From Alphaproteobacteria bacterium (GTDB taxonomy: Bacteria > Pseudomonadota > Alphaproteobacteria > Bin95): a stretch of DNA of 64,000 nucleotides. Both the position numbers and the translations under genes were made by a program. This document shows, piece by piece, positions 10,986 to 63,800 of the stretch. The notes beneath the pieces are model-generated. The model worked only from the letters and a program-made list of their open reading frames with translations, was not told where the DNA came from and did no database searches. Numbering within the stretch: the stretch's first letter is position 1; each line of letters opens with the position of its first letter. The DNA lies in the NCBI GenBank assembly GCA_965222315.1, contig OZ244951.1, positions 1,999,893-2,063,892 on the forward strand. The letters are read 5' to 3'.

Positions 10986-11169
10986 TTATAAAATTGTGAA
11001 TAGCAACATATGGTTGCTGCATTACTCTCCTGATTATGCCAGATTAATGTTCCGGTTTAGGCCGCCATTAGAATGTGCTAGAGCCGTGCGCGGTTTGCGT
11101 GACCAATTTCATAGGTGGGCAGCACACGGTAAGGGCATATAGGCGTTGTTCATATGGAGAGTTGCGACA

Positions 11170-14100
11170 ATGACAATAGATCAAAACAATAGCGGCGTCT
11201 CTGCAACGTCCGGTTCCGGCGGCGGCTTCCTTTCCGGTGAGGTAATCGTTCGCTTTGGCGACAGCAGCCTGAGCCAGGAGGCGAAAAGCGCCCTCCGCGA
11301 TTCTGTTGGCGCAGAATTGGTGTCGTCCACCCAGAAATGGGGTTTCGAGCTCTGGCAGTTTGATGGTGTTGCAACTGATGTCGCCATCGAGCAATTGCAT
11401 GCAAGCGGCGTTGCGGACTACGCCGAGTATGTCCAGGCCAACTATGTGCTTACGGCGGCGGACTTTGAAGCCGAAGCCACGATCCCGACAGACCCGCAGT
11501 TCGGCAACCTCTGGGGCCTGAACAATACGGGCCAATCCAACGGCACCGTCGATGCGGACATCGATGCGCCGGAAGCCTGGGATGTCAGCACAGGCGCGGG
11601 CGTCGTCGTTGCCGTGATCGACAGCGGCGTCGATTACAACCATCCCGATCTGATGAACCAGATGTGGATCAATACCGGCGAGATTGCGGGCAACGGTATC
11701 GACGACGACAATAACGGCTTCGTCGATGACTATTATGGCTACGACTTCGCCAATGACGATGGCGACCCATGGGACGACGACAGCCACGGCACGCACGTCG
11801 CGGGCACCATCGCCGCCCAGGCAAACAATGGGACGGGCATCACGGGTGTAGCCTACGACGCCGATATTATGGCGCTGAAGTTCCTGGATGCTACCGGCTC
11901 CGGCAGCACTTTCGATGCGATCCGCGCGATTGAATATGCAACGCTGATGGGAGCCGACATTACCAATAACAGCTGGGGCGGCGGCGGCTTTTCTCAGGCG
12001 CTCTACGACGCAATTGATTTGTCGGGACAGGGTGGTTCGTTGTTCGTCGCGGCTGCCGGCAATGGCGGCGCGGATCAAATTGGCGACAACAATGACAACC
12101 TGCCGCACTATCCGTCCAACTATGACTTGAGCAACCTCATTTCGGTTGCTGCCACCGACCGGAATGACAATCTGACGTCGTTCTCGAATTTTGGCGCAAC
12201 TGCCGTGGACCTTGCGGCCCCCGGCAGTTCCATCCTCAGCAGCGTGCCTGGCGGCGGTTACGCATGGTTCAACGGCACGTCGATGGCGACACCTCACGTC
12301 GCGGGCGTTGCTGCTTTGCTGCTCGCCAGCGAGCCGGGCCTGACGCCGGAACAGGTCAAAGACCGCATTCTGGACTCGGTCGATCCGCTTCCCGGTCTGG
12401 ATGGCATTACCGTGACGGGCGGCCGCCTGAACGCCGCCAATACGCTTGCACCGCCGCAGCCGGGCTCGATTTCCGGCACGGTTTGGGACGATGCCGACAA
12501 TGACGGTGTGCAGGATGCTGGCGAGGCTGGCCTGTCCGGCTGGACCGTATTCTTGGATGCCAACCAGAACGGTAGTCTGGACGGGGGGGAAGCCACCGCA
12601 ACCACCAATGGAGCCGGGGACTACACGTTCTCCAATGTTGCCCCTGGCTCTTATCAGGTGCAGCAGGTTGTGCAGAGCGGCTGGACGCAGACAGCGCCAC
12701 TTTTTGCGGGAAATTATGCCTATTCAGACAGCAATAGTGCAGGCGGGCCTGCCTATAACTGGTTCGACATTTCCGGTGTCGGCACGCAGATTGCGCTGAC
12801 TGACGATTCATTCGCGACGGTTGCCTTGCCCTTCTCGTTCGATTTTTATGAGCAGACTGAAACGTCGGTGAAGATTTCCTCCAACGGATACCTGACCTTC
12901 GGCGCGGACGGAACGGACTACAGCAACGAAGCCATCCCCAGTGCGACGGACCCGGACGCGATTATCGCGCCGTTCTGGGATGACCTGAACCCGGGGAATG
13001 GCGGCAACATTTACTATTACGATGACGCAGCCAACAACCGCTTCATTGTGGAATATGACAGCATCCAACCCTATGCCGGTTCGGGCAACTATACCTTCCA
13101 GGCGATCCTGAATGCGGACGGCAGCATCGGATTCCAATACCAGGCGATGAGCGGGACGCTAAATAGCGCAACCATCGGTATCGAAAATTACGCCGGCAAT
13201 GGTGGGTTGCAGGTCGCCTACAACGCCAACTACGTCCAGAATGGCCTTGCTGTGCTGATCGACGATGCGGCGGGTCAGCCGACTTTTAACGCAGTTACGG
13301 TGTCCAGCGGCCAGGCCGTCACGGGCGCCGACTTCGGCAACCACGATCCAAGCGGCGGCGGTGGTGGAAACCCCACCGACGACACGTTTATCGGCGGCGC
13401 AATCGACAATGTGTTCGACGGCGGTGGCGGCGATGACTCATTTTTGCTGCGGTACGGTAACGACACGGCTACCGGCGGCACGGGCGCGGATGAGTTCAAG
13501 ATTGACGGCCGCTTCGTCAACGATGGGGATGCGCACACCATTACCGACCTCACCTTCGGCGATGGTGACACGTTGGTGCTCCGGTTCTTCGAGCCGAACT
13601 CGTTCAGCAACGCGCCCGATCCTTCCAACCATCTGAATATCGGCAATAATGGTCGCACCGCAACGATCGACAGTATCGAGGACATCGTCGAAGCTCATGA
13701 CCATGGCGTTATGCAGGCATCCGACTCGGGCGACGGCGATACGCTGCTCAGCATCAGCGTTGCTGGTGATGAGGTGACTGTTGAACTGGACGGCATTTCC
13801 TTTGCCTCGCTCGGCATTGGCGGCGGTCCTCCGGTCGATCCATCGCCCGGCGATGATAGTTTTATTGGTGGCGGGGCGGATAATACCTTCCTGGGCTGGG
13901 GCGGGGACGACGACTTCCTGTTGCGCTATGGCAACGATACGGCTACCGGCGGCACAGGCGCGGACACGTTCAAGTTCGATGGCCGCTACGTCAACGACGG
14001 CGACTCGCACACCGTCACCGACCTCAATTTTGCCGAGGGCGACGTGATGATCATGCGCTTCTTTGAGACCGGCACGTTTGACAATGCGGTGGACCCGTCT

Positions 14101-14283
14101 AACCACCTGAGCGTCGGAAACAGTGGCGGCACTGCGACCTTCGACAGCGTAGAGGACATTTTGGAGGCGCACGCCAATGGCGTTATGACCGCTGCGGACG
14201 ACGGCTTTGGCGGTACGAACCTGAGTGTGTCCGTGGGCGGCGAGCTGTTGACCGTTACTCTGGACGGCTGGGATATCATTTAA
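11170..14283 (+). CDS. Subtilisin-like S8 serine peptidase with I9 propeptide, Cna-B/SdrD-like domain and C-terminal RTX-type calcium-binding repeat modules
   Basis: Catalytic triad regions VAVIDSGVDYNHPDL (Asp), HGTHVAGTIAA (His) and GTSMATPHVAGVAALL (Ser). No N-terminal hydrophobic signal peptide. GGxGxDxUx nonapeptides (GGGGDDSFL, GGTGADEFK, GGTGADTFK). The C-terminus ends ...TLDGWDII, resembling a type I secretion signal. Confidence 0.8.
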   Translation: MTIDQNNSGVSATSGSGGGFLSGEVIVRFGDSSLSQEAKSALRDSVGAELVSSTQKWGFELWQFDGVATDVAIEQLHASGVADYAEYVQANYVLTAADFEAEATIPTDPQFGNLWGLNNTGQSNGTVDADIDAPEAWDVSTGAGVVVAVIDSGVDYNHPDLMNQMWINTGEIAGNGIDDDNNGFVDDYYGYDFANDDGDPWDDDSHGTHVAGTIAAQANNGTGITGVAYDADIMALKFLDATGSGSTFDAIRAIEYATLMGADITNNSWGGGGFSQALYDAIDLSGQGGSLFVAAAGNGGADQIGDNNDNLPHYPSNYDLSNLISVAATDRNDNLTSFSNFGATAVDLAAPGSSILSSVPGGGYAWFNGTSMATPHVAGVAALLLASEPGLTPEQVKDRILDSVDPLPGLDGITVTGGRLNAANTLAPPQPGSISGTVWDDADNDGVQDAGEAGLSGWTVFLDANQNGSLDGGEATATTNGAGDYTFSNVAPGSYQVQQVVQSGWTQTAPLFAGNYAYSDSNSAGGPAYNWFDISGVGTQIALTDDSFATVALPFSFDFYEQTETSVKISSNGYLTFGADGTDYSNEAIPSATDPDAIIAPFWDDLNPGNGGNIYYYDDAANNRFIVEYDSIQPYAGSGNYTFQAILNADGSIGFQYQAMSGTLNSATIGIENYAGNGGLQVAYNANYVQNGLAVLIDDAAGQPTFNAVTVSSGQAVTGADFGNHDPSGGGGGNPTDDTFIGGAIDNVFDGGGGDDSFLLRYGNDTATGGTGADEFKIDGRFVNDGDAHTITDLTFGDGDTLVLRFFEPNSFSNAPDPSNHLNIGNNGRTATIDSIEDIVEAHDHGVMQASDSGDGDTLLSISVAGDEVTVELDGISFASLGIGGGPPVDPSPGDDSFIGGGADNTFLGWGGDDDFLLRYGNDTATGGTGADTFKFDGRYVNDGDSHTVTDLNFAEGDVMIMRFFETGTFDNAVDPSNHLSVGNSGGTATFDSVEDILEAHANGVMTAADDGFGGTNLSVSVGGELLTVTLDGWDII
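13375..14280 (+). repeat. Tandem duplication of a ~150-aa RTX-containing module inside the subtilase gene
   Basis: Unit 1 (DDTFIGGAIDNVFDGGGGDDSFLLRYGNDTATGGTGADEFKIDGRFVNDGDAHTITDL...) and unit 2 (DDSFIGGGADNTFLGWGGDDDFLLRYGNDTATGGTGADTFKFDGRYVNDGDSHTVTDL...) align end to end at roughly 60-65% identity. Confidence 0.6.
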
Positions 14284-16686: not shown

Positions 16687-17748
16687 CTACCCGGCCCGCT
16701 GCAAATCCTGAATTACCTCGCGCAGCGCGCCGGCGTCGGCCTCGTTCTCGACCGGCATGGCGAATTCGATGGACGTGATGCAATCATCGTAGCGCTCATG
16801 CAGTTTGGCGGCGATGGTGTCATAAGTCCCTACAGTGACGAAGTCGTGGTAGAGGTCATCCGGCACCCACGCCTGCATCTCGTCCCAGCGTTGCGCTTTC
16901 GATAGTTGGGCCATCTCCGCTGCGAGGTCGCCATAGCCGTGAAGTTCAAAGGGGCGGCGATAGCTGGGGGTGGATGCGTAGAAGGCGATGCGGGCGCGGG
17001 TCTCATCGATCTTGGCGGCCAGCGCGTCTTCGGTGCGGGCAGCGGCGACCAGGGGTTTCATAGCGACCTGAAAGTGGTCGAGACTGCGACCGGCCTTGGC
17101 CGCCCCGCGCTCGGCCGCCGGTTGCATCACTTCCTTGATGTAGCGCGGCGTGCATACGGGGTGCGGCCGCATTCCATCCGCACACTCGCCGGAAATCCGG
17201 CACATGACTTCGTTTACCACGGCGACGTGGATCGGCGGCGGCGGGTGGTCGATGGGGCCCGGATCGAACAGCGGCACCATCAGCGAGAGATTGTAGCGCT
17301 CGCTCTCATAGTTAAGCTTTTCGCCCGTCTGCCACGTGTGCCAGACAGCCCGGACCGCGCCGATATAGTCCCGCATCCAGGGGCCGGGCGGGTGATACTC
17401 CATGCCGAAGCGGCGCATGATGTGTCCGCGCACCTGGCTGCCGAGGCCGAGCGTGAACCGTCCCTTCGAGAGGCGCTGTAGCGACCAGGCGCTCATGGCA
17501 GTGATGGCGGGCGCCCGTGGAAAGGCCATGGCGACGGAAGTGGCGAGCTTCAGCGTTGACGTGCCAGCCGCGGCGATGGCCATCACCTGGTATGGGTCAT
17601 CCTTGGTTTCCTCCACCACCAGCGTGTCGTAGCCGAGGTCTTCGACCTGTTTGGCGTCTTCCAGCAGGGTCGAGAGGTCGATGGCCTTGTCCGGCGCACG
17701 GATGCCCGGATCGGTTTTACCGAGGGGGAGATAGGTTTCGACTTTCAT
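16687..17748 (-). CDS. LLM-class (luciferase-like) flavin/F420-dependent oxidoreductase
   Basis: 353 aa of the TIM-barrel luciferase-like monooxygenase family. Confidence 0.7.
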   Translation of the reverse strand: MKVETYLPLGKTDPGIRAPDKAIDLSTLLEDAKQVEDLGYDTLVVEETKDDPYQVMAIAAAGTSTLKLATSVAMAFPRAPAITAMSAWSLQRLSKGRFTLGLGSQVRGHIMRRFGMEYHPPGPWMRDYIGAVRAVWHTWQTGEKLNYESERYNLSLMVPLFDPGPIDHPPPPIHVAVVNEVMCRISGECADGMRPHPVCTPRYIKEVMQPAAERGAAKAGRSLDHFQVAMKPLVAAARTEDALAAKIDETRARIAFYASTPSYRRPFELHGYGDLAAEMAQLSKAQRWDEMQAWVPDDLYHDFVTVGTYDTIAAKLHERYDDCITSIEFAMPVENEADAGALREVIQDLQRAG

Positions 17749-19061
17749 GAGCGTTGTGGCGTTTCCGTATTGGTTAGCGGTGGCGCAAAGAGTTGCACGG
17801 GGTCGGAAATACCCCGCAAGCGAAAGGAACCCAGCGCCTCCATCGGATCGTCTAAGAGCGCGGCGACCGGTTCCGTCACCAACAGAGGCCGCCGCAATTC
17901 CTTGGTCATTGTCTCAACCCGGGCCGCCACGTTTACCGCGGGACCGATCACCGTGAAATCCAGGCGGTCAGGCGAGCCGATATTGCCGAAGAACACTTCG
18001 CCCGTGTGGAGCGCCAAGCCAATGCGCAGTGGCTGCCAGCCACCGATTCCGGCCAGCGGTTCCGGCGGTTCGGCAGAGAGACGGGCAATGCGGTCGCGAG
18101 CGTTGCGGGCCGCAGCAAATGCCTGCCGTGCCGTTTCGCGGCGGGCCGTTTCAGGGCCGTTGGTGAAAACCGCGAGCAGCCCGTCACCCATGAATTTCAG
18201 CACTTCTCCACCCTGTTCCTGGATGGCGGCTACCAGCGCTTCGAAATAGGCGTTCAGCAACGCCAGCATATTTTGAGGCGTTAAGCGGCTGGAAAGCTCT
18301 GTGAACCCGCGCATGTCAGACACCAGAACCACCGCGTCGAGAGGCGCGCCCGTGCCGCGGGTAATGGAGCCGTCCAGGACTTGTCGCGCTGCATTTCGGC
18401 CCAGGTAGGCTGTGGCAATATTCTCTGACACCAATAAGGCCATCAATCGCGCCACATGAATGGCGAGCAACCGGACCAGATTGTTGATGATCTCAAACGA
18501 AGGGCCGGAAAGACCGCCCGCCTCCACTGAGGCCATGGTAACCGTCATACTCTCCCGGCGCAGACCTTCGATCGATGTCAGTGGCATCACCAGATAATCT
18601 TTGAAGCCGCGCTCCGCCAATTCGCCCATGATCGGAAACCGCTCCGCCATGGCCGGGTCCCGTGGATCACCATGCAGGGTCTCTCCATGCTCGATGGCTA
18701 GATAGAGCGGGCTCTTAAGGTAAGAGGGATGCTCCAAGGTATCCGGATGAATGCGAATTTCGTCGCAAAGGCCGTCGTCCGCTTCCCAAATCCAGGAGTG
18801 CCCCAGGAGTTGCGGATGCAAGGTACCGGCGGAGAACGCCAATCGGGTCACCGGCAGCCCTGCGGCGACCAGCCGCCAGCAAAACGCTTCGGCCAGATCC
18901 AGCATGTTTCGGCAGAGCAGGGCCTCGCCCAGCAGCCAGGTTTCGACATCCGCTGGTGTGGCCGTGGTCCCGGCAACCGGAGGACCGTTGGCCGCCCGGG
19001 CATTCAGTTCGATATTCGCAGCGTACTGCCGTGGGGCTGGATCGAAACGGTGTGGGTGCAT
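17745..19061 (-). CDS. Class III adenylate/guanylate cyclase with an N-terminal domain of unknown function
   Basis: The C-terminal CYC domain is visible (VVLVSDMRGFTELSS...LKFMGDGLLAVF...IGLHTGEVFFGNIGS...VIGPAVNVAARVE). The N-terminal ~200 aa is unassigned. Its start overlaps the preceding gene's stop by 4 nt. Confidence 0.7.
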   Translation of the reverse strand: MHPHRFDPAPRQYAANIELNARAANGPPVAGTTATPADVETWLLGEALLCRNMLDLAEAFCWRLVAAGLPVTRLAFSAGTLHPQLLGHSWIWEADDGLCDEIRIHPDTLEHPSYLKSPLYLAIEHGETLHGDPRDPAMAERFPIMGELAERGFKDYLVMPLTSIEGLRRESMTVTMASVEAGGLSGPSFEIINNLVRLLAIHVARLMALLVSENIATAYLGRNAARQVLDGSITRGTGAPLDAVVLVSDMRGFTELSSRLTPQNMLALLNAYFEALVAAIQEQGGEVLKFMGDGLLAVFTNGPETARRETARQAFAAARNARDRIARLSAEPPEPLAGIGGWQPLRIGLALHTGEVFFGNIGSPDRLDFTVIGPAVNVAARVETMTKELRRPLLVTEPVAALLDDPMEALGSFRLRGISDPVQLFAPPLTNTETPQRS

Positions 19062-31138: not shown

Positions 31139-33412
31139 CTACTTTGTCTTCGCCTCGTAGACGCCGTCCCAGCCGTCGCCTGGCGGGTCTGCGCGCAGTT
31201 CATTGATGCGCAGGGCATATTCTTCGTAAAGCCCAGTCAGGCCGCCTGGATTGGGCGCTATGTCTTCGGGCGGGCCTTCTTGAGCATATGCTAAGGCGCT
31301 ATCCCAGTCCTGGGCACGGTAGGCGCTGAGCATTGCATCGACATGCGCCTTCGTTCGCGCGAATTGCGGCGTGGCGGCCATCGCGGCATCACCCAGCACG
31401 GTGAATACCCGCACGGCTTGTGTCTTGCCCTTCACTTGCAGCAGATCCAGTTCCAGGTAGGCGAAACCGGGGGCAAGGTTGGCCGTATCCTCCGACACAA
31501 CCAGGTCCGTGCCATACATCTTACTTTGCCCCTCCAGGCGGGAGGCGGTGTTGACCGTGTCGCCCAGGCAGGAATAGTCGAAGCGCAAGTCGCTGCCCAT
31601 ATTGCCGACAACGCAATCGCCCGTGTTAAGGCCCATGCCGATACGTACGGGCGGCAGGGCGCGGCCTTCTTCCGCCGCTTCCGCCTGCCATTCCGGCACC
31701 AGTTCCGCGAGTCTTGCGCGGATGGTTAACGCTGCGCCCACCGCTTGGGTGGCGTGATCGGGCTCGTCCACCGGGGCGTTCCAGAAGGCCATGATCGCAT
31801 CACCCATGTATTTGTCGATGGTGCCGCCGCTCTCCATGATGATGTCGGTCATTGGGGTGAGGAACTTGTTGATAAACTGGGTGAGCTGAATTGGCGTCAT
31901 GCTTTCAGAGATCGGCGTAAACCCTCTTATGTCGCAGAAAAAAAGTGTTAACGGACGGAGTTCTCCGCCCAATTGCGGTTCCTGGCCGGACTCCGCCATG
32001 CGCGAGACCAGCGCCGGGGAAAGGTAGCGCCCGAAGGTAGAACGCACCCGTTGCCGCTCCCTTTCGCTAAGGAGGTATTGAGTGGAGGTAACGACCAGAT
32101 AAACTATCAACGCGCCAACGGCCGGGTAGAGCGGGTCCACCAACAACCGGGCTTCCGAGTAGGCCAGCCATGAGCCAATGCCGCCACCTGCGGCGGCAAC
32201 CAGCCCGATCAGCGCGCAAGGTACCGGTCCCAGCCACGGCAGCAGGAAGACGAACACAAGGCCCATCATACCAAGCCCTAAGAACTCGGCTGCATCTGCC
32301 CAGCCTGGCCGGATCAAGTAATGGCCCAAGATCATCTGCTCAAGTGCCTGAGCATGAACGTAAATTCCCGGTACGCCACTGGTGAGTGATGTGGCGCGGA
32401 GATCCCGCAAACCCGGCGCTGTCGCGCCGATTAGCATGATTTGGCCCTCGACCAGCTCGATGAGCGCTTCCGGTTCTTGCAGCACGCGCCAAGCGGGAAT
32501 CGTGCGTTCGGGGATATCCTCTGAGTAGTGAATCCAGAATTGCGTGTCCTGCGCCATTGGTATTTCGAGTGCGCCGACTCGAAGGAGGTTCAAGCCATAG
32601 AATGCGCCTAGCCGGAACTCGCCCTGTGCATGAGCGGACCGCGCCACCAACGTGCTGGCGCCCTGGGCGACGCGCAGTGCCTCGACGGAGATCGTCGGGA
32701 TAATCGCATCGTCGATTTTCGAGAGCAGGGGCATGCGCCGGACAATCCCATCGCGCTCCGGCAGGTACGAGAAGTTGGCAAAGCCGGTGGCGGCCTCTTC
32801 CAGAACGGCTAGGTTACGGGTGGCGTGATCGAACTTTGGAATTGAATCGATCACGTCCTGATGGCCGGCAAATCCGACGCGCTTGGGCAAAGGTTCGGTG
32901 TTGCCTGCCTCACCGTGAAAGATCATGCCTAAAACACTTGGCGAGTTCGCGATGGCTTCGGCAAGGCGGTCGTCGTGGTCGCGAAGGCTCCGGAGGTGCG
33001 GCGCGATTTGTTCGCGAACTTCCTCCGGCAGTTTCCAGTCGCGGATGACTGTTGCCGGCGATGTGCGGTCTGGCTCAGCAAAAACAATATCAAACCCGAT
33101 CGCAGCAGAGCCGAGCGCGTTGAGATTGTCCACCAGATCAGCCATGATATGCCGCGGCCAGGGCCATTGGCCGAAGCGCCGCAGCGATTCCTCGTCCACG
33201 GCGATGACACGCACCGGGGCGGCCTCGTAGGTGCGGGGCGCGAGTTGTTGATAGCGGTCAAATACAAGGAAACGCGCAATTTTCAGGCCACCAGGATCCG
33301 CCCAACGGAGGGCCAAGGCCGCAAATAGTGCCAGTAACCCAGCAAGTATCACAATACCGCGGCGGCTAAAAATTCGTCGAGTGTGCTTTTTTTCACTCTC
33401 ATTTTTTGCCAT
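31139..33412 (-). CDS. CHASE2 sensor-domain adenylate/guanylate cyclase
   Basis: N-terminal TM segment, periplasmic CHASE2 region and three TM helices, then a class III cyclase domain (FFCDIRGFTPISE...KYMGDAIMAFWNAP...IGMGLNTGDCVVGNMGS...GDTVNTASRLE). Confidence 0.75.
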   Translation of the reverse strand: MAKNESEKKHTRRIFSRRGIVILAGLLALFAALALRWADPGGLKIARFLVFDRYQQLAPRTYEAAPVRVIAVDEESLRRFGQWPWPRHIMADLVDNLNALGSAAIGFDIVFAEPDRTSPATVIRDWKLPEEVREQIAPHLRSLRDHDDRLAEAIANSPSVLGMIFHGEAGNTEPLPKRVGFAGHQDVIDSIPKFDHATRNLAVLEEAATGFANFSYLPERDGIVRRMPLLSKIDDAIIPTISVEALRVAQGASTLVARSAHAQGEFRLGAFYGLNLLRVGALEIPMAQDTQFWIHYSEDIPERTIPAWRVLQEPEALIELVEGQIMLIGATAPGLRDLRATSLTSGVPGIYVHAQALEQMILGHYLIRPGWADAAEFLGLGMMGLVFVFLLPWLGPVPCALIGLVAAAGGGIGSWLAYSEARLLVDPLYPAVGALIVYLVVTSTQYLLSERERQRVRSTFGRYLSPALVSRMAESGQEPQLGGELRPLTLFFCDIRGFTPISESMTPIQLTQFINKFLTPMTDIIMESGGTIDKYMGDAIMAFWNAPVDEPDHATQAVGAALTIRARLAELVPEWQAEAAEEGRALPPVRIGMGLNTGDCVVGNMGSDLRFDYSCLGDTVNTASRLEGQSKMYGTDLVVSEDTANLAPGFAYLELDLLQVKGKTQAVRVFTVLGDAAMAATPQFARTKAHVDAMLSAYRAQDWDSALAYAQEGPPEDIAPNPGGLTGLYEEYALRINELRADPPGDGWDGVYEAKTK

Positions 33413-33519: not shown

Positions 33520-35037
33520 GTGAGCCAAGCAAGGCAGACCATTAATCGCAAATACTCGCAACCTGCGCCTGCGCGGGTGGCGATGCTTGTTTGCGTCCTG
33601 GCGGTTGCATTGTTCTCGTTTCTCATGGCGGGCGCTCCGGTACAAGCAGCCCCGGTTATTGGCTCGGCGTCAACAGTTGTACGTGACGTGAAAGGGCAAT
33701 TGGAGCGCAATTGGCGCGAGGTCGTCATTCACGACGACGTTCATCAGGACGAATTGATTAAGACGGGATCCGCTAGTGCAGCCCGACTAGTGTTTGCCGA
33801 CCGCACCGACTTTATGATCGGCGCAGAGTCCGAGGTTGTGCTGGACAAGTTCATTTATGATGCGACTTCAAACTCCGGGCAGTTGGTTCTGCGGGCAACC
33901 AAGGGTCTGATGAAGTTCCGCACGGGCAGTATGTCCAGCCGTTCATACCGTATCGACACGCCGGTCGCGACCGTCGGCGTACGCGGCACCGAGTTTGTAC
34001 TCCAGGTCTTCGAGGGCGGCGGCTCGTACATCAAAGTGATATCGGGCGAAGTGGTCGTGACGGATCACCGGAACAAATCGCTTTCTGTAAAAGCCGGTGA
34101 AACGGCAATTGTGTTCCCAGAATCCGATGCCCGCGCCGCGGCCGGTCCACGCTTGATCGCCGCAGGGGACTTTGCCCTGAGCGACCAGACTCGCGAAATG
34201 ATCGCACAGATCGTCTTTTCGGAAAGTACGACACAGACTCAACTGACAACCCAGGGGCAGCAAGCGGCTTCCTTTTCCGGCAATACGATCCAACTCAGTG
34301 CGATTGCCAATGGTGGCAACTCTCCAATTGCGGTCAATCCTGTAAAGCCTGCGCCACAGATTAAAACGGGATCCTCCGGCTCCTCCTTGCAGTCGCTTGT
34401 CCCTTCGCGGCAAGTTTTCGTGCCCCGCGGCTTACCCGGTTCATTCTTCAATAGCGGTTTCGACTCGGGGTTGAGCGGCTGGACATTTAGAGGCTCGGGG
34501 TCGGTGACTGTCATTCCTGATCCAGCTGATTCATTGAACAATGTGGCCCAACTGACAACCGGATCGCCAGTTTCGCTGGAGCAGACTTTTGAGCCGCTTG
34601 ATGAACCGTTCTCCATCAAGTTTTGGCGGCGGTTCTTGAGCGACAAGGGCGTGTTGTGCGTTTACGTCGAACCGGTAGAAGGTGATGCGGGTGAAAGCGC
34701 CAGCGCGAAGAATGATCCCGAACCCGCTTGTGATTCGGGCGCCCTGGCGGCTTTCGCATCGGTCGGTGCCGAACTTGCGATGCAGGAAGTAAGCATCGAT
34801 GTTCTGGATGAAGCGCTGTACGGTCTCGATCAATTGTTGCTGCGGCTGGTTTTCACCGCGGAAGAGGGTGGAGTTCAGGTGTTGCTGGACGACCTGACGA
34901 CGGTGCCCTATGTCGAGGGAGAGCCAGGTTCGACCGAGGTTCCGCTGGCACCGTCTATCGTATTTGTGGCCGGTACCTTCATCGTTGCTGGTCTGGCTGC
35001 TCGGTGGAGGCGGCGTCGGTCACAGGCCCTCTGGTAG
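33520..35037 (+). CDS. FecR-domain exported protein with a C-terminal VPLPA-CTERM-like sorting tail
   Basis: N-terminal signal/TM segment and a FecR-like beta domain (...ATVGVRGTEFVLQV...GEVVVTD...). The C-terminus is ...EVPLAPSIVFVAGTFIVAGLAARWRRRRSQALW (motif + TM + Arg-rich). Divergent from the CHASE2 cyclase. Confidence 0.55.
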   Translation: MSQARQTINRKYSQPAPARVAMLVCVLAVALFSFLMAGAPVQAAPVIGSASTVVRDVKGQLERNWREVVIHDDVHQDELIKTGSASAARLVFADRTDFMIGAESEVVLDKFIYDATSNSGQLVLRATKGLMKFRTGSMSSRSYRIDTPVATVGVRGTEFVLQVFEGGGSYIKVISGEVVVTDHRNKSLSVKAGETAIVFPESDARAAAGPRLIAAGDFALSDQTREMIAQIVFSESTTQTQLTTQGQQAASFSGNTIQLSAIANGGNSPIAVNPVKPAPQIKTGSSGSSLQSLVPSRQVFVPRGLPGSFFNSGFDSGLSGWTFRGSGSVTVIPDPADSLNNVAQLTTGSPVSLEQTFEPLDEPFSIKFWRRFLSDKGVLCVYVEPVEGDAGESASAKNDPEPACDSGALAAFASVGAELAMQEVSIDVLDEALYGLDQLLLRLVFTAEEGGVQVLLDDLTTVPYVEGEPGSTEVPLAPSIVFVAGTFIVAGLAARWRRRRSQALW

Positions 35038-35078
35038 TAGAGCCCGCAGCAATGAGTAACAAATCAAGTCAGCGACCT

Positions 35079-35107
35079 AGAGCCGGGCGGAGCAAATGCC
35101 CGGCTCT
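35079..35107. terminator. Bidirectional terminator hairpin between convergent FecR-like and cysteine synthase genes
   Basis: AGAGCCGGGC-GGAGCAAAT-GCCCGGCTCT: perfect 10-bp stem with a 9-nt loop. Confidence 0.45.
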
Positions 35108-35122
35108 ACGTGCTTCGAGGTT

Positions 35123-36205
35123 TTAGCCCATCTGATAGCCGGGCGTGGACTGAGAAATGGCGATCTCGTCGTTGCTCATTTCCTCCTCAATCCCCTCGAA
35201 TAGAGGCGTGGAGAGGTAGCGCTCGCCGGTGTCCGGCAGCATGGCTAGGATGACTGAGCCAGGCTCCGCCTTTTCCGCAATCTGCATGGCGATGGCGAGG
35301 GATGAGCCGCCGGAAATGCCGGTGAGAATGCCTTCCTTGGACGCCAATTCTTTTGCCCATTTAATGCCATCCGGGCCGGCGACGGGTATCAATTCGTCGT
35401 AAAGATTGTTGTCTATCGATTCCTGCAGGACGTAGGGGATGAAGTCCGGGGTCCAGCCCTGGATGGGATGGGGTTCGAAGGCAGGGTGGCTCACGGCTGG
35501 GGAGTTGGCCGCATTACGCTTCTGGGCATGGCCGCTGCCGACGATCTGCGCATTGGCAGGCTCACTCAGGATGATTTTCGTATCGGGCCGTTCCTTACGC
35601 AGCACCCGGCCAACGCCGGTGACAGTGCCGCCGGTACCATAGCCGGTCACGAAATAGTCCAGGCGGTCGCCAGCGAAGTCCGTCATGATCTCCCTTGCCG
35701 TCGTCGTCTCGTGAATGTCGGCATTGGAGGCGGTTTCGAACTGGCTTGCCAGGAACCAGCCGTTCTTCTCTGCCAGTTCGACGGCCTTGTTGTACATGCC
35801 GAAGCCCTTTTCGGCCCGCGGGGTCAGCACCACTTTCGCGCCGAACATTCGCATCAGCTTGCGCCGTTCAATGGAGAAACTGTCGGCCATGGTGATGACC
35901 AGAGGATAGCCTTTTTGTGCGCACACCATGGCAAGGCCGATGCCGGTGTTGCCACTGGTGGCTTCCACAACAGTCTGGCCGGGCTTGAGCGCGCCACTGC
36001 GCTCGGCAGCCTCGATGATGTTGACGGCGAGTCTGTCTTTGACGGAGGCAGCGGGGTTGAAAAACTCTGCCTTAACGTAGAGCCGGACGCCAGGCGGCGC
36101 GATATTTTTGACTTCGATGCAGGGCGTATTGCCCACGGTTTCGATGATGCCTTCATAAAGGCGGCCGCGGCCCGCGGTGGCGCGGACGTTTGGATCGTTT
36201 GGCAT
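35123..36205 (-). CDS. Cysteine synthase / cystathionine beta-synthase family PLP enzyme
   Basis: PALP-fold signatures (lysine motif SVKDRLA, glycine loop TSGNTGIGLA, ...GISGGSS...) with a ~40-aa C-terminal extension. Start taken at MPNDPN. Confidence 0.75.
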   Translation of the reverse strand: MPNDPNVRATAGRGRLYEGIIETVGNTPCIEVKNIAPPGVRLYVKAEFFNPAASVKDRLAVNIIEAAERSGALKPGQTVVEATSGNTGIGLAMVCAQKGYPLVITMADSFSIERRKLMRMFGAKVVLTPRAEKGFGMYNKAVELAEKNGWFLASQFETASNADIHETTTAREIMTDFAGDRLDYFVTGYGTGGTVTGVGRVLRKERPDTKIILSEPANAQIVGSGHAQKRNAANSPAVSHPAFEPHPIQGWTPDFIPYVLQESIDNNLYDELIPVAGPDGIKWAKELASKEGILTGISGGSSLAIAMQIAEKAEPGSVILAMLPDTGERYLSTPLFEGIEEEMSNDEIAISQSTPGYQMG

Positions 36206-36351
36206 GAGGTTCCTCCAGAAAAGCCGTAATGTGCGGAGCCGCACATTGCGACAGAAGAGGTGGGCAGGGAACCGCAAAGTACCGTCAATACGAAAACCTC
36301 TGGAAACACGGTGCATTTCCAGGGGGTGTAAGCAAATAACCTGAAGAACCG

Positions 36352-37206
36352 TCAGGCTTGGTCGATGATCTTCACGATGAAGTTGGGTAGCGCAAACGAC
36401 GCTACGTGAGTCGCCGGGTTGTAGTATAGGGTCTCGATTCCCAGCGCATCGAAACGGGCCTGGATGGTCTCCAGGCTCTGGTGGCGCAGGTCAGCGTCAT
36501 CTGTTGCCCAGCCGAGCGTCATAAAGCCCAGCGCATAGGTCGGGCAGGAAATGACGTAGCAGCCGGCATCATCAAACAGCGACCGAAAGTGCCTGACAGA
36601 GCTTTTCAATTCATCGCCCTGAACGAACGGCACGCCGTTCTGGGTGACGAGAATACCACCCGGTGTCAGGCAATTTTTACAGTGGCTGTAGAACTCATGC
36701 GTAAAGAGGACAGCGCCCGGTCCAATCGGATCGGTCGAATCGACCAGCACTAAGTCAAACTTCTGGTCGGTCTCGGCGACGAATTTTGCGCCGTCGCCGA
36801 TGACCAGGTTGACCCTGGGATCGTCATAGGCCTGGCCGCAGATGCTGGAGAGGTGCTCTTTCGAGATCTCCACAACACCGCCGTCCAGTTCGACTTCGGT
36901 GACATGCTCGACATCGTGCTTCAGCACTTCTTCCAGCAAACCACCGTCGCCGCCGCCGATGATCAGCACGCGCTTTACAGACCCATGGGCCAGCAGCGGC
37001 ACGTGCGCGAACATCTCGTGGTAGACGAACTCGTCGCCCTCTGTCGTTTGCACGACACCGTCCAACGTCATGAAGCGGCCGAATTTCCGGTTCCGCATGA
37101 TCTTGATGTCCTGAAAGCCGGTATGGCCTTCATAGAGGACTTCTTCGATCTCCAGACGCTGGCCGACTCCGTCGTGCAGGACTTCGTCGAACCAGGTTCC
37201 GCTCAT
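36352..37206 (-). CDS. speE: Polyamine aminopropyltransferase (spermidine synthase)
   Basis: WFDE...GQRLEIEEVLYE...VLIIGGGDGG...VIVDSTDP motifs in about 284 aa. ATGA overlap with the upstream speH. Confidence 0.8.
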   Translation of the reverse strand: MSGTWFDEVLHDGVGQRLEIEEVLYEGHTGFQDIKIMRNRKFGRFMTLDGVVQTTEGDEFVYHEMFAHVPLLAHGSVKRVLIIGGGDGGLLEEVLKHDVEHVTEVELDGGVVEISKEHLSSICGQAYDDPRVNLVIGDGAKFVAETDQKFDLVLVDSTDPIGPGAVLFTHEFYSHCKNCLTPGGILVTQNGVPFVQGDELKSSVRHFRSLFDDAGCYVISCPTYALGFMTLGWATDDADLRHQSLETIQARFDALGIETLYYNPATHVASFALPNFIVKIIDQA

Positions 37207-37784
37207 TTCAGTGCGCTGACCTGCAAGCCGCGGCGATGCTCCGTCAGATTGACGGTCGCCGGAGAGAAGGCTTCCTTCAGCACCTTGATGGCGTTGTAGG
37301 GATTGCAGTCGCCGCACATGAAGATATCCAGCGCTGCAAAGTTCCGCTCCGGCCAGGTGTGAATGCTGATATGGCTCTCGGAGAGAACCACTACGCCGGA
37401 AACGCCGCCATTTGGCTGAAAATGGTGCAGGTCGACGTTCAGGATGGTCGCGCCCGATACAATGGCCGACTTGCGTAACGCAGCCTCCACCGTTTCCAGG
37501 TCGTCCAGATTGGACGCACCGGCCAGATCGATCAGCAGGTGAATACCGGCAAATTCCAGGCCATCTTTCTTCACAAAGAAGTCCAGACGTTCGTCTTCGG
37601 CAGGCGCAACGTACTCCGTCACGCCGGCGGTATGCCTCTGATCAGCCTGATCGCGATCCATACAATGAGGATCGACAACCCGAACGGCTTCGTGTTCTTC
37701 AGGCTGTAGAGCGGACGGGACGTCAAAAGACGACTCGTACCCCGCGGCAACAGCCAGCTCTTCGAAAGTGCGATTATCATTCAT
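37203..37784 (-). CDS. speH: S-adenosylmethionine decarboxylase proenzyme (class 1B)
   Basis: Self-cleavage/active-site region VVLSESHISIHTWPE in a 193-aa protein. Confidence 0.8.
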   Translation of the reverse strand: MNDNRTFEELAVAAGYESSFDVPSALQPEEHEAVRVVDPHCMDRDQADQRHTAGVTEYVAPAEDERLDFFVKKDGLEFAGIHLLIDLAGASNLDDLETVEAALRKSAIVSGATILNVDLHHFQPNGGVSGVVVLSESHISIHTWPERNFAALDIFMCGDCNPYNAIKVLKEAFSPATVNLTEHRRGLQVSALK

Positions 37785-38054
37785 CGCAAATCTCCCGTGA
37801 ACCGGTATTGGGGGGTGGCAGGAAAGGCGCGCCTTATGACGGAAAGGTTCCGGTGGCGCAAGTTATTTCTTCGTACAACATCAAAGATTTTTTTCCTGCC
37901 TGAATGAAGGGCGCATGCGGGCCGCCCATTGCCCTGAAAACAGGCAGTGAAGCAAGCGGCGCAAACCTGCCTGATAGGCAAGAAATAGCGCACTGAGTGC
38001 GCAATTCAAGGGAAGATATCTAGCCCGTGCAGTATGCGGTACCCGGGCGACGCT

Positions 38055-38723
38055 TTAGGTCCGGCGGTTCCGGCGACGACCGAGGCGAAGACTCCCGGAC
38101 GTCAGCACCGCTGCAGCGAGAAGGCTGATGGAAGCTGGCAGTGGCACCGTGGTTGGGGCTGGCACCGGCGGGGAGGCCGTGCCGATCAGTTGGTGACCGG
38201 CGTTTTGATGGGAGACGATGGAGCGGCTTTCCGCAACGTTGGTGTCAACCCAGTATTGCTCGTCCGGCGTGCCCAGATCACTAGCGCAAAAGTTCGTACC
38301 GATACACCAGGCAAAAGCAGCGCCGGCAGACCTCCCTGATATGGAAAACACGCTATAGACGCCGGAGTAGGAAGGTTCGAACCGGAACTCCATCTCGGTG
38401 GCGGTCGCGAACATGCCATGGCCATAATTGGCCGGACCTTCGATATCGTATGTCAGTATGGAGCTTGCGGCCGTAGCAGCCGCAGACTGCGAACCGGTGG
38501 CAATCGCCAAATTCCAGCCGACAATGTCACCTGGGGCCAACAGACCGATGGTGCCGTCGGTTGTAATCGTGCCTTGCAGCCGCGCCGACGGGCCGAAACC
38601 GGTTGCCGCGCCCGTAAATATCCGGTCGACGGAATACGAGATGCTGGCGGCGCTACCAGCCGTTGGCAGCACCGCAATTGCGCAGCAAAACGCTGCCACG
38701 AGCCTGTTCATCTGACCTGCCAT
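38055..38723 (-). CDS. Secreted protein with VPLPA-CTERM sorting domain (paralog A)
   Basis: Signal peptide, conserved core (GTITTDGTIG...FAWCIGTNFC..DLGTPDE), and the C-terminus ...TVPLPASISLLAAAVLTSGSLRLGRRRNRRT. Confidence 0.55.
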   Translation of the reverse strand: MAGQMNRLVAAFCCAIAVLPTAGSAASISYSVDRIFTGAATGFGPSARLQGTITTDGTIGLLAPGDIVGWNLAIATGSQSAAATAASSILTYDIEGPANYGHGMFATATEMEFRFEPSYSGVYSVFSISGRSAGAAFAWCIGTNFCASDLGTPDEQYWVDTNVAESRSIVSHQNAGHQLIGTASPPVPAPTTVPLPASISLLAAAVLTSGSLRLGRRRNRRT

Positions 38724-38955
38724 CTCCTGCTATCGCCTAGTCAAGCGCCGGATGCCGGAAGCGTGGCCCAGCGCATGGCACAACTATAAAGAGATATTCA
38801 GGTGAGAAAACAGCAATATAAATGTTGAATTATTCAGGTACGACACATCGGGGCCGGAACTGTGGATAACCTCGATCCGGCCAATTCTCCCGCAGCCCCG
38901 GTTGGCCTCTGCGCGCGATGCGGCGGGCGGCCGCATTACCGGGTCCAGTGTGGAT

Positions 38956-39645
38956 TTAAGCGCGGAGGGGAGGGGACGGCAGTCTGGGGGCTTGTTTTCG
39001 GCGGCGCCGCGCTTGGCGCAAGCCGCTGCCTGCGGCGGCCATCAAGCCGGCGCTGGCAAGTAACAGGATGCCGCCCGGCAATGGCACCGGCGCTGCCAGG
39101 TTTTCCCGGTCTGCCGTACCATATTCCGCGACGGTCCGGCTCTCGTCTTTGTCGAAGCGGATCAGGACCAGTTCATCGGGAATACCGAAATCGTTGTTGC
39201 AGAAGTTGGTTCCGATGCACCAGGCGAAGAAATTGGGAAGCGAGGTGTCTCCGGTAACCGAACTGCCCCCCCAGATGCCGAAAATGGAGTAGAGCGAGCT
39301 GAAGGCAGGCCCGAAAACAAAGTCCAGCCCGGACGGGCCAGCGAACAATCCCTGGTTGTACAAGGTCGGGTCCACTGTTTGGAAGTCGAGCAGTGAGTTG
39401 GAGGGATCGACCGACAGTTGATAAGGGCCGGTCGTCAGCGAAAGGCTCCAATCAAGGATGTTGGACGGCGTAAGGAAGCCAAATGTACCGTCCGTGGTGA
39501 TCGTGCCTTTGACTTGGGCCGGCGGGCCAAAGACTGTTTTACCGGGCGTCAAGGTTCGTTCGACCGAGTAAATGACGTTCGCGGCAGCGCGTGTGCCGTA
39601 CACGGTCAGCACCAAGGCTGCCAATAAAATTCCAAGCTTCCGCAT
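38956..39645 (-). CDS. Secreted protein with VPLPA-CTERM sorting domain (paralog B)
   Basis: Signal peptide MRKLGILLAALVLTVYGTRAAA, the same conserved core (GTITTDGTFG...FAWCIGTNFC..DFGIPDE), and the C-terminus ...PVPLPGGILLLASAGLMAAAGSGLRQARRRRKQ. Confidence 0.55.
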   Translation of the reverse strand: MRKLGILLAALVLTVYGTRAAANVIYSVERTLTPGKTVFGPPAQVKGTITTDGTFGFLTPSNILDWSLSLTTGPYQLSVDPSNSLLDFQTVDPTLYNQGLFAGPSGLDFVFGPAFSSLYSIFGIWGGSSVTGDTSLPNFFAWCIGTNFCNNDFGIPDELVLIRFDKDESRTVAEYGTADRENLAAPVPLPGGILLLASAGLMAAAGSGLRQARRRRKQAPRLPSPPLRA

Positions 39646-39848
39646 GGTCACCCCTACCGTATCCGTACTCATAATGGCACGCCGACGCGCATACCAAAAT
39701 ATCCGTTACGCATACAATTATAGGGAATGGAGGTGGCGGTCAAACCCTCATGTATTGGGTATGGGGTGTCATAGTTGATAGTGCATACACATATATTCGG
39801 CTTCTTACAGGGGTTGGGCAGGGCGGGCTAACCCAACCGGGCGATGGT

Positions 39849-41624: not shown

Positions 41625-41954
41625 GGGAGGGATCCCGGAGATGAAGAGAACCGATGGCGGGATGTAGGCGAGCAGGCCTGCAAATGCAAAGAAGAATTCC
41701 GAACGTTCTTCAACGATGAATAGGAGGGCAAATGATGTTTGCTCCTATTAGTTATAAGCTACCCAGCAAAATATGGGTTCTGATGAAGGTCGCGACGATG
41801 GAATGCGTTTCGCATTTCACCCGAATGTCGTTGTCGCTGGCTTCACATCCGCACGGCACACTGAAGTGAATTATGACATCGTCCACAAGGACCAGAGCCC
41901 ACACGGTTGACGTCAGCGCTGAGGGCTTTATTTTGAGTTAAAGCCATCGACCTC

Positions 41955-42170
41955 TGCGGGAGAGCTCGTCCCTTGGCAGTAGCCATCGGATGACGCCGAA
42001 GGAGCAACCGGCCCCGGAAACTCTCAGGCACCGTGGACCGCAGGGTGAGGCACCTCTGGAAAGAGAGCGCGCTTTTCGAAGCGCTCTCCGCCGAAGAAGT
42101 AAGCGATGGACAGGCGGCAGAGATTGCCGAACCGTTTGCGTGAATCTTTCAGGCATAGGAGACAGAGCGG
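41955..42170 (+). ncRNA. Tandem glycine riboswitch (two aptamers) in the gcvT leader
   Basis: Aptamer 1: GGGAGAG...CGCCGAAGGAGCAA...CTCTCAGGCA...GGACCG. Aptamer 2: CTCTGGAAAGAGAGCGC...CTCTCCGCCGAAGAAGTAAGCG...CTTTCAGGCATAGGAGACAGAG. Both match the conserved glycine riboswitch cores and sit directly upstream of gcvT. Confidence 0.75.
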
Positions 42171-60875: not shown

Positions 60876-63800
60876 ATGTCCTCAGAATCCGGCGGCCTGG
60901 CCGCTCTCGCCGCGCCTTGGCGGATCGGCGTCGATGTCGGCGGCACCTTTACCGACCTGGTGCTGACGGATAGCGCCGCCCGGAGCCTGGTGGTCAAGGT
61001 GCCCTCCGTCCCCTCTGACCCCAGCCAAGGTGTGCTGGCGGCGCTGGAGCGGCTCGCGGGCAATCTCGGTTGCATGGTGACGGACGTGCTGGCGGACTGC
61101 GCCCTGTTCGTTCATGGCTCAACGGTGGCGACCAACACCATGCTGGAAGGCAAGGGTGCCACTGTTGGACTGCTGACGACGGCGGGCTTCCGCGACGCGC
61201 TTGAAATCCGCCGCGGCCTGCGGGAGGACCAGTGGAACCATCGGGAGCCGTTCGCGCCGGTGCTGGTCCCCCGGTACCTGCGCCTGGGCGTCGGCGGGCG
61301 GACCGATAGCGACGGCAGCGAGCACGAGCCCCTGCGTCTCGGCGATGTGGACGAGGCTCTTACGGCGTTCCGCAGCGAAGGTGTGGAGGCGGTTGCCGTC
61401 GCCTTCTTCAACAGCTTCCTGAACGGCGCGCACGAGAAAGCCGCAGCCTCCCGCTTGCGCCAGCAGTGGCCGGAGGCTTGGGTGACGGAATCCGCCGCTC
61501 TCTCCCCGACACTGGGAGAGTACGAGCGCACTTCCACTGCGGTAGTGAACGCCTGCCTCTCGCCACGCATCGTCTCCTATCTACGCTCGTTGGACGAGCA
61601 ATTGCGCAGTTTGGGCCTGAAGCCGCCGCTGTTGCTGGTGCAGTCGAACGGCGGTGCGATCTCGGTGGAGCAGGTAGCGCCCCGCCCGGTCAACCTGCTG
61701 CTGAGCGGCCCGGCGGCGGCGGTCGGTGCGCTGAACTACTACCGTGGTCTGCTGGAGCAGGGCGAGACGGGCGGCAATGATCCCGGCAACCTCATATCCA
61801 TGGAAATCGGCGGCACGTCCTGTGATGTACTGCTAATGTCGGCGGGCCAGGTGGCGATGAAGGACGATCTGATGATCGCCGGCTATCACGTCTCCACCCC
61901 GGCGATCGACATCCACACCATCGGCGCGGGCGGCGGCACGATTGCGGGCGTGGATGGGGCGGGCATGCTTTATGTGGGTCCTCAGGGTGCGGGCGCGGAC
62001 CCCGGTCCCGCGTGCTACGGCAAGGGCGGCGAAAACCCGACTGTCACCGACGCGCAACTGGTGCTGGGCAGGCTCCGCGCCGGGGCCTATGCCGAGGCTG
62101 GGCTGACGCTGGACCTGGAGGCGGCGCGGCGAGCTATACAGACAAAGGTCGCCGACCTGCTCAGGCTTTCGGTGGAGGATGCCGCGGTCGGCATCATTGC
62201 GCTCCTGGAACAGAACCTGCTGCACGCGGTTGAGTACATCTCCATCGAACGCGGGCACGCGCCCAGGCTGTTTACGCTGGTTGCGGCGGGCGGCGCCGGG
62301 CCGATGCACGGGGTGAGCGTCGCGCGCGGACTCGGCTGCGAACGGGTCTACGTGCCGCGCGATGCGGGTGCGCTCTGCGCTGTCGGGATGCTGCATGCGG
62401 ACGTGCGCCAGGATTTCCAGCGGTTCCTGCGTGGTGCCTTGGATGATCTGGACCCAAAGGTGGTTGAAACCGACCTGGCAGGACTGGACGCACAGGCGCT
62501 GGAAGCCATGCAGGCCGAGGGCTTCGGCGGGGACCAGGTGGCGTTGGAGCACGCCATTGACCTGCACTACACCGGCCAGCTTTCCTCCCTGCGCGTGATC
62601 CTGCCTGCGGGCGGCTTCGATACGAAGGCCGTGCGGGAGGTGTTCGAGACGGAATACCAGCGCCTCTATGGCCATGTGCAACCGGACGGCACGATCATGA
62701 GCGCCTCCCTCCGCGTCGCCGCCCGTGCCGCCACCGGCACGCCCAAGGCCAAGGCGGGCCATGCTCCCGCTGCCTCCTCCGCTGAGCCGCAAGAACGCCG
62801 GCAAGTCTGGCATGAGGGGCGTGGCATGCTGGAGACTGCGGTCTATGGCGGCACGGCGCTCGGCCTCGGCGCGACTGTCGAAGGGCCTGCCGTGATCGAG
62901 GAACGTACGACCACCGTCCTGCTCGGTCCTGGCGACCGCCTCGCCGTCGATGGCGCAGGCAATTTCATGATCCAGGTGGCGGAGGCTGCCGAGGCCGCAG
63001 AACACGCCCGGCAAGCTGCCCCGGAAGAAAAGCTCGACCCGGTCATCCTGGCGCTATTGCAGAACCGGCTCGACCAGATCAGCAAGCATATGGGCTGGGT
63101 CATGACCCGCACGGCCCGCAGCCCAATCTTCAGCCAGAGCCACGACTTCTCCTGCTACGTCACCACGCCGGATGGCACGCTGGTCGCCAATGCTGACGGC
63201 ATCCCTATTCACACCGGCGGCGGCGGCTTTGCCGTACGGGCGTTGCTGCGTGACTTCGAGGGACGGATCAATCCGGAGGACGTGTTCATCCTCTCCGACC
63301 CCTATGTCGCGGGCGGTAACCATTTGCCGGACTGGGTGATCGCGCGGCCGATCTTCGTCGGCGAACCCGCGCGGCTCGCGGGCTTCTGCTGCAACCGCGC
63401 CCACCAGTCCGACATCGGCGGTGGCCTCGCCGGCACCTACAACCCGGAGGCGACCGAGATCTGGCATGAGGGCATTCGCCTGCCGGTGATGAAGTTGGTG
63501 GACCGTGGCGAGTTGCGGGACGACCTCTGGAAGTTGCTGCTCATCAACTCCCGCACGTCGGAGCTTCTGGACGGAGACCTCCGCGCCATGTTGGGCTCGA
63601 CCCGTGTCGGCAGCGAGCGGGTGGCGGCGTTGGCGGGCGAGCTTGGCCTGGAATCCTACTTCGCCCATCTGGCCGGCGTGCTCGACCATGCCGACGCCCG
63701 CATGCGGGAGGCCGTGCGGGCGCTACCGGACGGCACCTATCTGGGAGAGGACAGCACCGACAACGATTGCTTCGACAAGATCGAGACCGCAATCCGCGTC

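Follow-up and report, generated by a model that had tools for sequence, protein, structure and literature searches.

Introduction

In the PEP-CTERM model, proteins are exported by the Sec pathway and retained by a C-terminal helix, with a short motif at the periplasmic face that is recognised by EpsH/exosortase (Haft 2006, PMC1569441). Eight attributes of such tripartite sorting signals have been listed, and the enzyme for one class, MYXO-CTERM, went unidentified for more than 10 years (Haft, preprint). In the literature searched, the VPLPA-CTERM class (TIGR03370) comes up once, in passing, for a Methylophaga genome that has PEP-CTERM genes as well (PMC12530212). Here, three genes for secreted proteins with a motif, helix and Arg-cluster tail, termed A, B and C, were analysed in a 64,000-nucleotide stretch (the window) of an Alphaproteobacteria bacterium genome (assembly GCA_965222315.1, contig OZ244951.1, positions 1,999,893 to 2,063,892 of the forward strand). 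B and C are paralogs. Their tails are probably a PEP-CTERM-class sorting tag, with Leu replacing the Glu of VPEP, on small secreted beta-rich cargo; A has a related tail and would be sorted alike or anchored.

Gene A lies next to a gene for a CHASE2-domain cyclase, and two described systems resemble this pair. In Sinorhizobium meliloti, the FecR-domain protein SMc02177 directly follows cyaD1 (SMc02176), the gene of a CHASE2 sensor, in locus-tag order (PMC5498481). In a Burkholderia operon, a secreted LysM-FecR protein is encoded beside a CHASE2 kinase (PMC5192318).

Results

Three genes in the window encode tripartite C-terminal tails

The open reading frames (ORFs) of A, B and C and the order of VPL(P/A)x motif, hydrophobic helix and Arg cluster, as claimed in the initial annotation, were borne out by the translations (Table 1). 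The translated C-termini are EVPLAPSIVFVAGTFIVAGLAARWRRRRSQALW for A, TVPLPASISLLAAAVLTSGSLRLGRRRNRRT for B and PVPLPGGILLLASAGLMAAAGSGLRQARRRRKQAPRLPSPPLRA for C. The ends first quoted for A and B were correct, but that of C was cut short, since C runs 11 residues (APRLPSPPLRA) past RRRRKQ. This extension is present in a 97%-identical homolog (P0006) and absent from an 88%-identical one (P0007). In a six-frame scan of stop-to-stop ORFs of at least 60 aa, in which [VIL]P[LIVA][PAST], 12-24 hydrophobic residues and a basic cluster had to occur within the last 60 residues, tripartite tails were found in A, B and C only. AlphaFold2 (AF2) models placed helices on the hydrophobic tail segments of B (197-218) and A (478-504). 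N-terminal signal peptides were read from the sequences and alignments of all three proteins. The tails are kept in orthologs down to 44% identity.

B and C lie on the same strand with 232 bp between them. Their proposed paralogy was confirmed by 40% identity (E 2e-46) and by the GTITTDGT and FAWCIGTNFC..PDE blocks common to both. For B, a start at MNRLV (38711) matches the homolog starts and has AGGAG upstream of the ATG; for C, a start at MRKLG (39645) is likewise supported by homologs. These are likely the true starts. Relative to its 97%-identical ortholog at another locus (L001), C differs synonymously at 16 codons and nonsynonymously at 8, indicating a genuine gene that is under purifying selection.

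The tail position of the B/C family is occupied by different sorting signals

Close homologs of B and C are rare and metagenomic, and all carry VPLP(G/A), a helix and a basic cluster. The wider family is very large. A profile search of 1.84 billion representatives returned 3910 clusters at E ≤ 1e-3 and 1634 at E ≤ 1e-10, mostly secreted proteins of 180-230 aa. Most B/C homologs have true PEP-CTERM tails at the aligned position: among the top representatives outside the query alignment, PEP-motif ends were counted in 120 of 146, PLP in 5 and VP[LIV]x in 3. In alignments of 12 and 77 sequences (A1 and A4), where core identity is about 24-39%, VPLP is exactly in register with VPEP and both prolines of VP(L/E)P are invariant. 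The VPLP-tailed relatives of B and C keep V, P, L and P without exception, and the wider family likewise keeps P194 and P196.

When 77 members were scanned singly (E ≤ 0.001), 44 matched PEP-CTERM, 7 VPLPA-CTERM, 5 PEPxxWA-CTERM and 1 VPDSG-CTERM; matches to the last two models fell below cutoff wherever bit scores were examined and are look-alikes. Positive controls for TIGR03370, all above its cutoff of 25.35 bits, were found within the same cargo family (P0153, 35.2 bits; P0137, 30.6; P0110, 26.2). P0110 and P0150 also reach the cutoff of the PEP-CTERM model TIGR02595, which is 16 bits (scores of 16.0 and 16.1 bits); the TIGR03370 match of P0150, at 17.5 bits, is below cutoff. Tail type varies by lineage over 42 genome loci from Acidobacteriota, Burkholderiales, Alphaproteobacteria, Planctomycetota and Verrucomicrobiota. 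All relatives found in this genome scan are at most 50% identical across the matched segment.

The tails were then set beside the attributes listed by Haft (preprint). C-terminal location, a hydrophobic segment of transmembrane (TM) length and a cluster of 2-5 basic residues (attributes 1, 4 and 5) are seen in all three, with the 11 extra residues beyond in C. On multiple occurrence per genome (attribute 2), the 64 kb covered give a count of three tails. The signal peptides correspond to attribute 6. Apart from the tail, the bearers are unrelated (attribute 7): A resembles B and C in the tail only. For A against B, hhalign aligned the tails in register (probability 58%, E 1e-4), and BLASTP gave no match. 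Homologs elsewhere with a different signal (attribute 8) exist for B and C; for A, 13 of 13 orthologs keep the A-type tail. Attribute 8, together with attributes 1 and 4-7, favours a PEP-CTERM-class sorting tag over a generic anchor for B and C.

Other arrangements of tailed genes were seen among the loci. A Burkholderiales metagenome-assembled genome (MAG; L018, 2-607 and 9476-10618) encodes VPLPG- and VPEPG-tailed proteins less than 20 kb apart and so handles both motif types. In alphaproteobacterial MAGs (L005, 5009-5563 and 9713-10552; L017, 9854-11209), paired adjacent genes have (T/V)P(L/I/V)PAALPL tails; the upstream copy in L017 apparently has a frameshift within the tail.

Gene A encodes a FecR-domain protein beside a CHASE2 cyclase

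The signal-peptide junction QAAPVIGSAS is conserved among A orthologs, and a helix was modelled at residues 16-37. The FecR domain is the most conserved part of the A-family alignment (A2), and its modelled fold matches the FecR-type anti-sigma domains 4m0h and 6ovk (Foldseek on the AF2 model). A disordered linker of about 85 residues separates it from a C-terminal beta-sandwich, for which Foldseek gave TM-scores of 0.6-0.7 to the carbohydrate-binding modules (CBMs) CBM61, CBM16 and CBM22; a CBM_4_9 match was weak (E 0.12). The whole-chain model is poor, with a predicted local distance difference test (pLDDT) score of 55. Thirteen full-length orthologs were found, all metagenomic and 43-99% identical. 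All 13 retain a tail of [DE][VI]P[LVAI]xP[SAG], TM segment and RRRR, and none of them has an alternative tail.

The divergent neighbour of A encodes an adenylate/guanylate cyclase with a CHASE2 domain, and this pairing is kept in an ortholog locus (L045). Like SMc02177 beside CyaD1 and the Burkholderia LysM-FecR protein beside its CHASE2 kinase, A is a secreted FecR protein adjoining a CHASE2 receptor. Unlike those proteins, A adds a CBM-like sandwich and a motif/TM/Arg tail, which are not described in those papers, and the A and cyclase genes are divergent whereas theirs are co-oriented. A plasmid search with A returned FecR-domain fragments only, from rhizobial replicons; in the one context checked, no CHASE2 gene was present. 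Two class III adenylate/guanylate cyclase genes lie within 15 kb, at 17745-19061 (-) and 31139-33412 (-), the latter being the one with CHASE2, which suggests that the organism is rich in cyclic AMP (cAMP) signalling.

Comparison with curated models and weighing of the alternatives

If the B/C tail is a sorting tag as in the published PEP-CTERM model, the protein would be exported by Sec and its signal peptide cleaved, and the C-terminal helix would hold the chain in the inner membrane, the Arg cluster facing the cytoplasm and the VPLP motif lying at the periplasmic surface. A sorting endopeptidase within the membrane, its gene located elsewhere in the genome and the enzyme most likely of the exosortase family, would then recognise the motif, remove the helix and pass the protein to the cell surface or matrix. 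A, whose pairing with the adjacent CHASE2 cyclase is conserved, may be sorted likewise through its [VI]P[LV]xP tail or be simply anchored by it. For A these two readings are close to evenly balanced.

The case has counterevidence, which begins with the curated models. The initial annotation had likened all three tails to VPLPA-CTERM and PEP-CTERM signals, and the corresponding hidden Markov models (HMMs) did not bear this out. TIGR03370 gave B 12.9 bits against the cutoff (E 0.081, model positions 1-13 only) and did not match A or C, either as full proteins or as isolated tails. The PEP-CTERM models TIGR02595 and PF07589 matched none of the three, in whose tails the near-invariant Glu position holds Leu or Ala. 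P0007, P0008 and P0027, the entire clade nearest B and C, matched no sorting-domain model, and P0008 has a weak basic cluster (…GYCRS). Given the failed models, membership of A, B and C in a curated family is not established. The VPLPA signature itself is present in B and varies to VPLPG in C and VPLAP in A. It could not be upheld for A, whose conserved form is [VI]P[LV]xP, with the second Pro one position later; a single Pro is conserved at 90% or more in the A-family alignment and the second is displaced. The A-type motif was seen nowhere outside the A family in the data examined. The window contains no exosortase-like gene, as had been noted, all of its multi-TM ORFs being BacA, CopD, OpgC or MFS proteins. 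Near 10 sampled B/C-family loci no exosortase was found either, 10 multi-TM ORFs there being EamA, ABC permeases, Wzy, other transporters and similar. What the data show is the tail architecture, its conservation, the exchange of tails among homologs and the extracytoplasmic features; cleavage of the tail, which enzyme acts on it and where the protein ends up are what we infer.

Compared with the PEP-CTERM/exosortase system (EpsH, XrtA), the three proteins are alike in tripartite layout, signal peptides, little-recognisable cargo homology and several copies, three of them in the window. They differ in that no model matches, the window has no EpsH/exosortase gene and no exopolysaccharide locus, and a consensus scan found no sigma-54-like site upstream of the three genes. 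With VPLPA-CTERM, B and C share V-P-L-P-(A/G), a hydrophobic helix, a C-terminal Arg cluster and a secreted bearer. In contrast to members that pass TIGR03370, the B/C helix, as read from the sequences, does not have the LLLsGLgGL-like pattern and is 2-4 residues longer, and in A the conserved Pro is displaced by one (VPLAP). The B/C tails appear to lie in the VPLPA-CTERM neighbourhood, too diverged for the curated model.

The tails could instead be plain, uncleaved C-terminal anchors of bitopic inner-membrane proteins with periplasmic ectodomains, the Pro motif acting as a helix cap or hinge. For the locus as a whole we hold this rather unlikely. It is most plausible for A, whose FecR/CBM-like ectodomain could dock onto the periplasmic CHASE2 domain: A matches no sorting HMM, its motif is confined to its own family, its pairing with CHASE2 is conserved and has the FecR-next-to-CHASE2 precedents (PMC5498481, PMC5192318), and no sortase is in the window. 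For B and C, however, a generic anchor is hard to square with the hundreds of homologs that have a recognised sorting domain, of exchangeable type, at this position. The motif Pro residues also stay invariant despite drift of the helix sequence. Chance resemblance, with the tails being merely hydrophobic Arg-rich C-termini of a GC-rich genome, was also considered. At 62% GC, short motifs are frequent and so are Arg-rich translations of wrong frames, and several spurious "tails" do occur in non-coding frames of other loci. On the other hand, A, B and C are real genes with conserved orthologs, C has a synonymous excess, the motif prolines are invariant across families and no further window ORF matches. 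We regard chance as effectively refuted by ortholog conservation and give it hardly any weight.

Another possibility is that VPLP/VPLxP is an orphan signal for a non-exosortase enzyme, e.g., a CPBP/Rce1-like or rhomboid-type protease, in a lineage without exosortase. The escape of the tails from all curated models would agree with this, as would the failure to find an exosortase locally, the MYXO-CTERM precedent of a long-sought enzyme (Haft, preprint) and the near-absence of VPLPA-CTERM studies from the literature searched. Opposed to it are the register of VPLP with VPEP in one cargo family, the two proteins at the PEP-CTERM cutoff that also match TIGR03370 (P0110 above and P0150 below its cutoff), the VPLPG and VPEPG tails within 20 kb in the Burkholderiales MAG, and the two annotations in one Methylophaga genome (PMC12530212). 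Together these observations suggest one enzyme class, and we consider the orphan signal improbable. The exosortase-type sorting tag on B and C, with A sorted alike or anchored, is retained as the probable reading.

The B/C core is a beta-rich domain with a conserved cysteine pair

B and C had been described as having no recognisable domain. This stands for Pfam and NCBIfam, but not in the wider sense, given the very large family and a weak, sub-cutoff similarity to PepA. No Pfam domain was found in the family members checked, and the B/C core has no confident relative among solved structures. The AF2 model of B has pLDDT above 90 over most of residues 31-180 and comprises 12 beta strands, followed by a disordered linker and the tail helix. 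The family signature consists of GTITTDGT on the N-terminal side and a W-C-x(5-7)-C loop (W-C-x5-C in B), in which both Cys are at least 90% conserved. The Cys pair fits an extracytoplasmic disulfide, predicted in B to link C140 and C146.

The flocculation-associated PepA model NF033554 matched 53 of 77 B/C-family members, with a best E value of 1e-13. The matches examined cover much of the core plus the tail (residues 43-181 in a Roseateles homolog), and none of the scores examined reaches the cutoff of 80 bits, the best being 51.7. B and C themselves did not match, and their closest relatives P0009 and P0010 gave only E 0.002-0.006. This suggests a distant relationship of the B/C-family core to PepA, from which no functional inference is safe. 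We take the similarity as a lead, not an assignment.

In Phycisphaerales, proteins of 640-790 aa (L025, 9104-11074; L026, 10001-12367; P0028-P0030) contain 4-5 tandem GTITTDGT domains. They end in a DFFDVSAFLQ...GCP repeat and have no TM tail; adjoining genes encode (V/I/T)PAPS + TM + RRRR tails.

B and C occupy a variable island on a conserved backbone

The interval 33520-39672 also contains genes for a PALP enzyme, spermidine synthase and S-adenosylmethionine (AdoMet) decarboxylase, which are unrelated housekeeping genes. Among related loci the order acyl-CoA dehydrogenase / speD / speE / PALP / A / CHASE2 cyclase is kept. The acyl-CoA dehydrogenase is only 55% identical to a Tistrella protein, which supports placement in Pseudomonadota and nothing closer. 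The number of B/C copies on this backbone is 0 in L045, 1 in L002, 2 in L001 and 2 in the window, indicating an insertion specific to the lineage and a later tandem duplication. The small variable island that results lies between the AdoMet decarboxylase and acyl-CoA dehydrogenase genes (L045, 14092-14267; L002, 9438-10850; window, 37785-39848). Two genes of about 210-220 aa in L045 and L002 were considered as displaced B/C paralogs and rejected as unrelated. A plasmid search with C gave no match.

Upstream and downstream regions

The initial annotation had placed each of the three genes behind an AT-rich promoter island. The AT-richness was confirmed, since the regions upstream of A, B and C are all in the lowest 0.5% of 80-nt windows (minimum GC 0.39 per 80 nt for A; window GC 0.62). 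The promoter part was not, the sigma-70 scan being at chance with a site upstream of A only; the spacer range of that scan starts above the 15 nt of the TTGACC-N15-TATAAT read by eye upstream of C. A sigma-54/RpoN promoter, a lead from PepA-type genes, was rejected: in a consensus scan none of the three genes had an upstream site, and the window count was at chance. A cyclic di-GMP riboswitch upstream of B and C, prompted by Methylophaga (PMC12530212), was likewise dismissed, with no Rfam match at the gathering threshold or at E ≤ 5. Alignment of the upstream regions of B, C and the L002 ortholog showed no conserved element. The terminator-like hairpin downstream of B belongs to a kind of site whose regional count is at chance.

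Other features of the window

Tandem glycine riboswitch aptamers (RF00504, 60.1 and 35.8 bits) at 41947-42167 (+) immediately precede gcvT-gcvH-gcvP1-gcvP2. Because the second aptamer extends into the longest gcvT ORF (start 42106), the true gcvT start is probably further downstream. The gene at 11146-14283 (+) encodes a 1045-aa S8 subtilase that combines a fervidolysin-like prodomain with SdrD_B and NIDO domains; close to its C-terminus, RTX repeats are matched weakly and below cutoff. The protein lacks a tripartite tail and is possibly a secreted protease. At 61119-63689 (-), where segment GC is 0.67-0.69, GC at the first codon position reaches 0.80-0.87 in the longest ORFs, a level seldom seen in real genes; these are probably wrong-frame or wrong-strand calls.

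Table 1. Coordinates of A, B, C and associated features in the window
Feature	Position	Strand	Description
Gene A	33520..35037	+	505 aa; alternative start Met22 at 33583
Gene B	38055..38723	-	222 aa; likely start 38711, giving 218 aa
Gene C	38956..39672	-	238 aa; likely start 39645, giving 229 aa; paralog of B
A tail	34936..35034	+	EVPLAP + SIVFVAGTFIVAGLAA + RWRRRR + SQALW
B tail	38058..38150	-	TVPLPA + SISLLAAAVLTSGSL + RLGRRRNRRT
C tail	38959..39090	-	PVPLPG + GILLLASAGLMAAAGSGL + RQARRRRKQ, then 11-residue non-conserved extension
A signal peptide (predicted Sec)	33520..33648	+	aa 1-43, ...APVQA/AP; read from sequence
A FecR domain	33757..34053	+	aa 80-178; PF04773, 52.6 bits, E 6e-14 (gathering threshold 24)
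A C-terminal beta-sandwich	34447..34914	+	aa ~310-465, CBM-like; pLDDT 73-88
CHASE2 adenylate/guanylate cyclase	31139..33412	-	PF05226 E 6e-53, PF00211 E 5e-19; divergent neighbour of A
AT-rich island upstream of B	38769..38848		GC 0.36
AT-rich island upstream of C	39716..39795		GC 0.425; TTGACC-N15-TATAAT read by eye
Terminator-like hairpin	37988..38002	-	~50 nt past B stop codon

Discussion

The B/C tails are best regarded as a diverged variant of the known PEP-CTERM/VPLPA-CTERM class and not as a new kind of system, which leaves the current understanding of PEP-CTERM biology unchanged. The practical meaning lies in annotation. The VPLP-tailed clade escapes the curated models, so that annotation pipelines can be expected to label its members "hypothetical" and to undercount surface cargo.

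For A, the joining of a sorting-type tail to the FecR partner of a CHASE2 cyclase is without a reported parallel and could bear on signal reception by CHASE2 receptors. A more far-reaching proposal joins the orphan-signal idea to this pair: VPLP/VPLxP would be processed by a non-exosortase enzyme, and surface-sorted A would relay an external cue, perhaps a glycan, to the CHASE2 cyclase. We think this unlikely, with a little more room for it than for the orphan signal as set out above; if true, A and the CHASE2 adenylate cyclase would form a surface-to-cAMP signalling pair.

The B/C core, given its free switching among PEP-CTERM-class tails, offers a convenient natural system in which to study the recognition preferences of individual sortases.

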